Notes: generated by a model from the sequence alone, not told the origin. DNA of 64,000 nucleotides from an uncultured Christensenella sp. (GCA_949294455.1 CASFHD010000001.1:76215-140214); one strand, 5' to 3'. Shown: positions 61,387 through 62,581, numbered from the stretch's first letter. Numbers and translations are program-made.

Positions 61387-62079
61387 ATGGAAGTTGATAA
61401 TAAAAAAAATGACGAAAATATAATCCCTAATGATGCAGATAAGCCACAAAAAGGTGTTAATGTTCCTAATTTGAGATTCCCTTGTTTTTATTCAAAATGG
61501 GAGAAAAATAAATTTAAAAATCTTTTTGTTTTACTTAAAAATAATACATTATCTCGTGCAGAATTAAATTATAATAAAGGCAAAATAAAGAATATTCATT
61601 ATGGAGATATCTTAATAAAATTTAATGATTTTGTATTATCAAATTCGAATTCTATACCATATATAAACGATGAAAGCATTCCTAATAAATATTCAGAATT
61701 ATTGCTAAAAAATGGCGATTTAATAATTGCAGATACCGCAGAAGATTACTCAGTGGGGAAAGCTACAGAATTAATATTTAATGATAAATCTTTAATAATT
61801 TCAGGTTTGCATACAATACCTTGTCGACCAGTTCAAAATATTTTTGCTTCTAAATATTTAGGTTATTATATAAATAGTCCTAGTTATCACAATCAGTTAT
61901 TACCATTAATTCAAGGAATAAAAGTAAGTTCAATTTCTAAATCTCAAATTATTAATACTTATATCACATATCCAGATATTAAAGAACAAAATAAAATTGC
62001 AGAATTTTTAGATTTAATTGACCAACGCATTGACACCCAAAGCAAAATCATTTATATTAATTTCAAAAACAAATGGTAA
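61387..62079 (+). CDS. hsdS: Type I specificity subunit at the expression locus: TRD1 + start of the central conserved region, ending prematurely
   Basis: ATG lies 1 nt after the hsdM stop. VPNLRFPCF N-terminal motif. IAEFLDLIDQRIDTQSKII central motif, then YINFKNKW-stop. Confidence 0.85.
   Translation: MEVDNKKNDENIIPNDADKPQKGVNVPNLRFPCFYSKWEKNKFKNLFVLLKNNTLSRAELNYNKGKIKNIHYGDILIKFNDFVLSNSNSIPYINDESIPNKYSELLLKNGDLIIADTAEDYSVGKATELIFNDKSLIISGLHTIPCRPVQNIFASKYLGYYINSPSYHNQLLPLIQGIKVSSISKSQIINTYITYPDIKEQNKIAEFLDLIDQRIDTQSKIIYINFKNKW
61460..61478 (+). repeat. 5' hsdS recombination repeat, copy A (encodes VPNLRF)
   Basis: ATGTTCCTAATTTGAGATT. Its reverse complement is at 63682..63700, and a direct copy of the 17-nt core is at 63722..63738. 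Confidence 0.85.
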
Positions 62080-62581
62080 AGTTGTTGCACTTTCTGAAAT
62101 AGCCAAAGTTTACCAACCAGAAACAATCACTCAATCAAAGTTTAATGAAAATGGAAAATTTCCCGTTTTTGGTGCCAATGGGCTAATTGGACATTATAAT
62201 TTTTATAATCATGAGAACGCACAAATTTGTATAACCTGTCGTGGTGCTACATGCGGAAATGTTAATCTTTCTCTGCCAAAATCTTGGATTACAGGCAATT
62301 CTATGGTTATTAATACAGATGAATGCACTAGAATAAATAAAATGTATCTATATTATTTACTAAAAAATTATAATTTTAAAAGTATTATTTCAGGATCAGG
62401 ACAACCGCAAATTGTTAGAGAGCCTATTTCTGCAATAAAGATTAATTTACCAATAATTCAAGATCAAAACGAAATCGTTAAAATTTTGAATACATACAAT
62501 GAATTGTTAAGAAAAGAAAAAGATATACTTAAGCTTTATAAAAAGCAAAAAGCATATCTTCTTAAAAACATGTTTATATAA
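62018..62581 (+). CDS. hsdS: hsdS TRD2 + distal conserved region, in the +1 frame relative to 61387..62079 (frameshifted half; TTG start is only nominal)
   Basis: KVVALSEIAKVYQ...FGANGLIGHY...ITGNSMVINT...KLYKKQKAYLLKNMFI. No ATG or RBS of its own. Confidence 0.65.
   Translation: MTNALTPKAKSFILISKTNGKVVALSEIAKVYQPETITQSKFNENGKFPVFGANGLIGHYNFYNHENAQICITCRGATCGNVNLSLPKSWITGNSMVINTDECTRINKMYLYYLLKNYNFKSIISGSGQPQIVREPISAIKINLPIIQDQNEIVKILNTYNELLRKEKDILKLYKKQKAYLLKNMFI
62023..62052 (+). repeat. Central hsdS inverted repeat, copy A (30 bp, encodes QRIDTQSKII)
   Basis: CAACGCATTGACACCCAAAGCAAAATCATT. The exact reverse complement is at 63189..63218. Confidence 0.9.

Follow-up and report, generated by a model that had tools for sequence, protein, structure and literature searches.

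A probable, currently active Type I specificity shufflon in an uncultured Christensenella sp. and a 35-nucleotide hsdS deletion specific to a single assembled contig

The DNA analysed here, a stretch of 64,000 nucleotides from an uncultured Christensenella sp. that we call the window, carries a Type I restriction-modification set in which HsdR, HsdM and HsdS occur together, as judged by their Pfam matches. The genes follow one another in the order hsdR, a half-size hsdS-like gene, hsdM, the expressed hsdS, a silent inverted copy (hsdS') and a direct copy, hsdS'', that holds a first target-recognition domain (TRD1) only. On the plus strand, hsdR (56317..59118) is intact at 933 aa and matches HSDR_N, SWI2_SNF2/ResIII, T1R_D3-like and EcoR124_C, while hsdM (59817..61385) is intact at 522 aa and matches N6_Mtase (E=8e-112) and HsdM_N. 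Between the two, on the same strand, lies the half-size gene (59209..59817; 202 aa), which comprises one TRD and a C-terminal helix and whose weak Methylase_S match (E=0.0019) falls under the Pfam cut-off. This gene is kept in the nearest species genome (UMGS1447, L003) and in L007, is missing from GCA_019973095.1 (L084), and is mostly gone from the three runs X2-X4, which skip 59141-59632 and have 14 nt in its place. It might provide the enzyme with a second, fixed palindromic specificity. Upstream of hsdR, the interval 52969-56270 holds an AAA_14/DUF4143 ATPase, two small HTH genes, a YpsA/SLOG-family gene and a T5orf172/DUF4357 gene, and may represent a defence-island context.

The ATG of the expression-site hsdS (61387) comes 1 nt past the hsdM stop codon. 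As the window stands, the gene runs on the plus strand to 62079 and encodes 230 aa with a Pfam Methylase_S match, made up of a leader, the domain TRD1a, half of the central helix, eight out-of-frame codons and a stop. Two short repeats lie within its coding sequence, namely a 5' recombination repeat of 19 bp that encodes VPNLRF (61460..61478, plus strand) and a central recombination repeat of 30 bp, R, that encodes QRIDTQSKII (62023..62052, plus strand). The TRD1a cassette occupies the space between them (61479..62022, plus strand), and R is followed by the TRD2a cassette with its conserved C-terminal helix (62053..62581, plus strand; Methylase_S, PF01420, E=1e-22). The silent hsdS' (62574..63719) lies on the minus strand without a proper start codon and consists of TRD2b (62574-63188), a copy of R (63189-63218), TRD1b (63219-63681) and a copy of the 5' repeat (63682-63700); no exact product of it is on record. 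Both inverted copies are exact, over 30 bp for R (62023-62052 and 63189-63218) and over 19 bp for the 5' site (61460-61478 and 63682-63700), and the repeat matches, of which 2 and 3 were observed, numbered 0 in 100 shuffles, such that neither repeat is attributable to chance. Beyond hsdS', the silent hsdS'' (63722..64000, plus strand, continuing past the window end) opens a third cassette, in which the 5' repeat recurs in direct orientation over 17 nt (63722-63738) ahead of a new first domain, TRD1c; this 17-nt core (61462-61478 in the expressed gene) is common to all three cassettes. A 23-nt spacer (63699..63721), which forms part of the inverted repeat I14, lies where hsdS' and hsdS'' face each other head to head with their 5' repeats. 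The spacer is flipped in L083 and L084, and both of its ends adjoin TRD1a in run X1. At the opposite end of hsdS', the convergent hsdS and hsdS' overlap by 8 nt within a perfect 16-nt palindrome, ATGTTTATATAAACAT (62570-62585); both genes finish in NMFI-stop, and the tail-to-tail overlap recurs in L003, L007 and L084.

A silent, inverted hsdS copy with which the expressed gene has repeats in common, within its own coding sequence, is characteristic of a shufflon, as is the outcome of exchange at those repeats, which in silico preserves the frame and yields full-length alternative HsdS proteins. Two such inversions had been predicted by an earlier, sequence-only reading of the window, and both gave the predicted products when they were carried out in silico. 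Inverting 62053..63188 rebuilds an intact open reading frame of 426 aa by joining 222 codons of the expressed gene to 204 codons of hsdS', and inverting 61479..63681 places hsdS' behind the native leader as an intact open reading frame of 399 aa. The locus contains three TRD1 and two TRD2 cassettes in total, and six HsdS proteins are therefore possible.

Run X1 (Logan ERR10610462) is the only public run that holds the strain of the window, with 96% of the sampled words. Its data are k-mer contigs and unitigs (k=31) rather than read counts, and rare variants drop out of such contigs. The X1 contigs that cover the window are identical to it apart from a single 35-nt site discussed below, and we infer that the assembly from which the window derives was built from this run. 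The contigs break at each repeat; the hsdM-bearing contig stops exactly at 61478, and TRD1a forms a separate 582-nt unitig. A repeat of 19 bp cannot by itself break a graph built with k=31, for which reads with different continuations are needed, and the breaks at the 5' site are thus explained by reads that carry different continuations. These continuations are visible as junction unitigs of 41-43 nt each at the 5' repeat, flanked by sequence at a depth of about 17-21. The window forms are represented by the leader-TRD1a junction (depth 6) and the spacer-TRD1b junction (8.4), and the remaining unitigs join the leader to TRD1b (7.1), the spacer to TRD1a (4.5) and the other end of the spacer to TRD1a (5). 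TRD1a hence occurs next to each of the three upstream flanks (depths 6, 4.5 and 5). The leader-TRD1b and spacer-TRD1a junctions are the reciprocal products of the 61479..63681 inversion, which is accordingly seen in the population. Together with the inverted hsdS' and the exact repeats, these junctions uphold the earlier view of the locus as an invertible hsdS system, and they show, at the level of contig k-mers rather than read counts, that several arrangements of the 5' site coexist in one metagenomic population. In run X4, TRD1a occupies the third slot at full depth (25), and in other samples the second slot is taken by TRD1c and the third by TRD1a (proteins P0241 and P0243). Exchange at the central 30-bp site, which contigs of k=31 cannot phase, is to be expected from the repeat and from the precedent of the family.

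No recombinase gene lies within the 64-kb window. The X1 contigs extend TRD1c to a third copy of R at ~64235-64264 (extended window coordinates), ~235 nt beyond the window end, and a contig of 1520 nt continues from this R with AAATTTTTATTTTCTCAAAAGAAAATAATT. These 30 nt are identical to the start of a tail that precedes a recombinase gene in L083, a contig from another sample that is 97.7% identical to window 63180-64000. In L083, a 141-nt tail lies between R and a tyrosine recombinase gene (Phage_int_SAM_3 and Phage_integrase) that has a strong ribosome-binding site; a full-length form of the recombinase, of ~302 aa and with HxxR and catalytic-Tyr motifs, is visible in P0243. A tyrosine recombinase gene would, on this evidence, start ~0.4 kb past the window end, with the 30-nt identity as its link to the strain of the window itself. 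TRD1c is followed by R and then by a recombinase-type tail, and the third cassette therefore lacks a TRD2. A homology search with the L083 recombinase fragment returned best matches of only 62-68% identity, and a homologous recombinase lies in or beside the hsdS array in 23 of the 80 HsdM-related loci; L084 combines six full hsdS genes with a recombinase and L007 combines five cassettes with one. In L083 (1-740, minus strand), P0243, P0246 and P0249, the TRD1 of the third slot, R, a tail of 47 codons and the recombinase share one open frame, for which gene callers predict TRD1-recombinase fusions of 522-577 aa and which recurs with different TRD1s. The fusion is probably a gene-calling artefact, because the recombinase comes with a start of its own, an ATG with the ribosome-binding site AAGGAGG. 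We also considered that P0249, which joins the leader, TRD1a and the recombinase, had arisen by deletion between direct copies of R, and set this aside as a chimeric path through the shared 540-bp TRD1a accounts for it equally well.

In the mechanism that we propose, a site-specific recombinase would swap cassettes at two short repeats placed within conserved coding segments, one of 17-19 bp encoding VPNLRF and one of 30 bp encoding QRIDTQSKII. The neighbouring tyrosine recombinase would catalyse the exchange, and each of the six HsdS variants would re-programme the methylase and the nuclease together. The closest parallel is the six-phase hsdS inversion switch SpnD39III (ivr/cod) of Streptococcus pneumoniae (PMC4190663; PMC4948785), in which inverted repeats inside hsdS, silent truncated copies and a Cre-like recombinase generate six variants (PMC4190663). 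Both loci have a single expressed hsdS co-transcribed with hsdM, silent partial copies without starts or promoters, repeats within the coding sequence, and five TRD cassettes that yield six HsdS variants. SpnD39III also includes a tyrosine recombinase gene, and the present locus would include one beyond the window, on the evidence given above. The loci differ in that the cassettes are combined as 3 TRD1 x 2 TRD2 here and 2 x 3 in SpnD39III, that the repeats measure 17-19 and 30 bp here as opposed to 15, 85 and 333 bp, that the recombinase here would be distal, after the TRD1-only cassette, and that an additional half-size hsdS is situated here between hsdR and hsdM. Type I systems with epigenetic invertons or duplicated hsdS genes have been widely catalogued (PMC7672463; PMC7394358; PMC9881135), including in Bacteroides fragilis (PMC7641763). 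Like them, the present locus is a multi-hsdS array of alternating orientation, probably beside a tyrosine invertase, in a host-associated bacterium, and its relatives, such as L084 and L007, are laid out in this way too; there is no essential difference from the catalogued systems, and the lineage, an uncultured Clostridiales-like gut bacterium, is simply uncharacterised among the examples.

The feature that sets the window apart is the broken reading frame of its expressed hsdS. As the sequence-only reading had described, the frame is lost directly after QRIDTQSKII, with the 230-aa product ending in ...QRIDTQSKIIYINFKNKW eight codons further on, at a TAA stop (62077-62079), and TRD2 continues in the +1 frame (...SKTNGKVVALSEIAKVYQ...) to the NMFI-stop at 62581. 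Relative to 61387, the +1 frame thus encodes a second target-recognition domain in full (GKVVALSEIAKVYQ...NMFI). The sequence-only reading had put the suspected deletion here at about 35 nt, and in comparison with two independent sequences exactly 35 nt are missing. The deletion point lies at 62052..62053 on the plus strand, immediately 3' of R at its very boundary, and the missing block, GAGCAATATGAATCTCTAATAAAAGCAATTAGCAA, corresponds to the codons EQYESLIKAIS plus 2 nt. The lesion costs the TRD2a cassette 11 2/3 codons of its central coiled-coil helix, which measures ~42 residues with the 35 nt and ~26 without them, the C-terminal helix measuring ~41. Restoring the block brings TRD2a into frame (...QSKIIEQYESLIKAISNILISKTNGKVVALSEI...) and gives a continuous HsdS of 409 aa in the present orientation, with two Methylase_S stretches (Pfam) and a full-length central helix; homologous HsdS proteins of three unrelated genomes (L037, L080 and L012) can be aligned with this helix, EQYESLIKAISNILIS, without a gap.

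The restored form is the one that the contigs of run X1 carry. A contig of 1227 nt at a depth of 20.8 (L002, ERR10610462_54134) covers everything between the two 30-bp repeats and matches the window over 1192 nt, with the insertion of the 35 nt at 62052|62053 as the sole difference. The competing junctions are R|TATATTAATTTC in the window and R|GAGCAATATG in the 35-nt form. The R+TA junction of the window is absent from all six X1 records that align to 61960-62160, and 31-mers of the deleted junction, for which two words were sampled, were found in no indexed run. A 32-nt unitig that starts with R has a depth of 40, about twice 20.8. The 35-nt segment opens with GA, as does TRD2b, and the depth is consistent with R being continued by GA in both TRD2 cassettes, which leaves little room for R+TA. 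The 35 nt are also carried, with one mismatch, by L084, whose alignment to window 61984-63260 is 93% identical and has these 35 nt as its single gap, and L003 has a close DNA homologue of them right after R in its hsdS'. Exact-pattern scans for the start of TRD2a (AATGGTAAAG...CCAAAG) found no match among GTDB species genomes or JGI metagenomes, and L084 itself is one base off inside the scanned pattern. The module from TRD2a to TRD2b is 93% identical between the window (61984-63260) and L084 (8475-9786), as opposed to only 75% for hsdR and 81% for hsdM, and judged by these identities cassettes appear to have been exchanged between lineages. The truncated products sit on one 140.5-kb NCBI/ENA contig only. 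The 35-nt deletion is specific to the contig behind the window and is not the dominant sequence of the population, and the 230-aa product is probably a rare defective allele or an assembly artefact rather than a programmed OFF or half-S state.

The sequence-only reading had taken the present orientation to be just such a state, in which a stably defective TRD2a cassette would make the switch alternate the intact variants with an HsdS that is either non-functional or a homodimer with TRD1 only. The broken hsdS of the window is itself in favour of this idea, and precedents exist, as truncated HsdS proteins and ON/OFF switching have been predicted for clade-2 invertons (PMC7672463) and the SpnIV/tvr locus of S. 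pneumoniae includes a truncated, non-functional TRD iv (PMC6265443). The tvr locus is the nearest precedent, being a shuffling hsdS locus with one defective cassette in which some arrangements have no active enzyme, but strains with the tvr defect have it as a fixed trait, whereas the dominant sequence of the present population is free of the lesion; tvr also differs in shuffling by excision and reintegration. We consider a programmed OFF or half-S state improbable. In the only run that holds the strain, the dominant sequence carries this cassette intact and at full depth within a continuous 409-aa hsdS, so that the defective cassette was not found as a resident allele, and neither the intact cassette of L084 nor the missing deleted junction, in the X1 contigs as in the run index, agrees with the proposal. 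The ~26 of ~42 central-helix residues left in the truncated product, moreover, make its function as a dimer doubtful, to judge from its predicted helix.

The sequence-only reading had also allowed that a one-nucleotide error might conceal a continuous hsdS in the present orientation. A continuous hsdS is indeed what the contigs contain, but it is restored by a 35-nt and not a 1-nt difference. A single-nucleotide error or slippage in the A5 tract at 62065-62069, the latter amounting to a simple-repeat switch, would bring to mind NgoAV of Neisseria gonorrhoeae, in which a change in hsdS homopolymer length reportedly truncates HsdS and alters its specificity. A frameshift past the first TRD would here, as in NgoAV, yield a TRD1-only HsdS, and shortening A5 to A4 does open a continuous reading frame (...IIYINFKTNGKVV...). 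That frame, however, still lacks 11-12 central-helix residues that are found in all homologues, and the tract itself is unchanged in L002 and L084, where the 35 nt lie upstream of it. The difference is a 35-nt block in which, as distinct from NgoAV, no repeat tract is involved, and A5 is invariant in the three sequences; phase variation through a simple sequence repeat was thus not found at this site, and we regard a slip in the A5 tract as scarcely credible.

A more serious contender, to which we nevertheless give somewhat less than an even chance, is that no molecule with the deletion exists and that the window records an assembler path through a graph that branches at the 30-bp repeat. The deletion starts precisely at the repeat boundary, which is a three-way branch in the graph, the locus is heterogeneous in the sample, the junction appears in no independent data, and chimeric paths occur elsewhere at the locus, as in P0249 with its union of leader, TRD1a and recombinase. 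Against a pure artefact, a De Bruijn assembler does not normally report a junction that its reads lack, and no shared k-mer or microhomology is available for joining ...ATCATT to TATATT...; the 7-nt direct repeat AAAGCAA, with copies 35 nt apart, gives a different product. The deletion in the 140.5-kb contig thus probably reflects at least some real reads. Such reads could stem from a minority allele. We hold it to be unlikely, however, that this allele circulates as a mobile null TRD2, moved in and out of the expression site by the specificity recombinase. If it were true, OFF or TRD1-homodimer states would exist beside the specificity states, and a subpopulation would transiently be without restriction. 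A deletion allele that turned out to be real and common would join the null cassettes for which Type I shufflons already offer precedent.

Three other accounts of the sequence around the deletion were considered and rejected. The region 62050-62103 could have been derived from the 5'-UTR and start of the upstream half-size hsdS, with which it shares the repeats D2 and D19, but once the 35 nt are restored the similarity comes down to 15 of 17 AT-rich bases and the restored region is ordinary coding sequence of the central helix; we discard this origin because of both observations. The two AAAGCAA heptamers have a spacing of exactly 35 nt, but a slipped deletion between them would leave ...AAAGCAATTAGCAATATATT, while the window has ...AAAGCAAAATCATTTATATT. 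Independent translation of TRD2a from a TTG at 62018 would have to proceed from a site with no ribosome-binding site and no in-frame ATG ahead of the domain.

Taking these lines of evidence together, we hold with good confidence that the locus is a conventional and currently active Type I specificity shufflon, and that the frameshift of its expressed hsdS is a contig-specific deletion of 35 nt. Its value lies in offering a clean example of coexisting inversion states that can be read from the junction k-mers of a metagenome. It also carries a lesson for annotation, since contigs at such loci are single, and possibly chimeric, paths through a branching population graph, and frameshifts beside recombination repeats should be checked against reads before an OFF state or a pseudogene is called. 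Among the 80 HsdM-related contigs of metagenome-assembled genomes, at least 12 end 50-140 nt past hsdM, at the 5' hsdS repeat (such ends are seen in L004-L006, L034, L036, L039, L040, L051, L053, L054, L056, L069 and L070), which suggests that the population heterogeneity of shufflons routinely breaks metagenome assemblies.

Two further features of the window lie on the minus strand. A stop-free frame of at least 2825 codons (1-8475) runs off the window start and has a signal- or anchor-like hydrophobic opening segment; it probably encodes a giant surface protein. A T-box leader at 36040-36248 (Rfam RF00230, 103 bits) is the sole Rfam match in the window.
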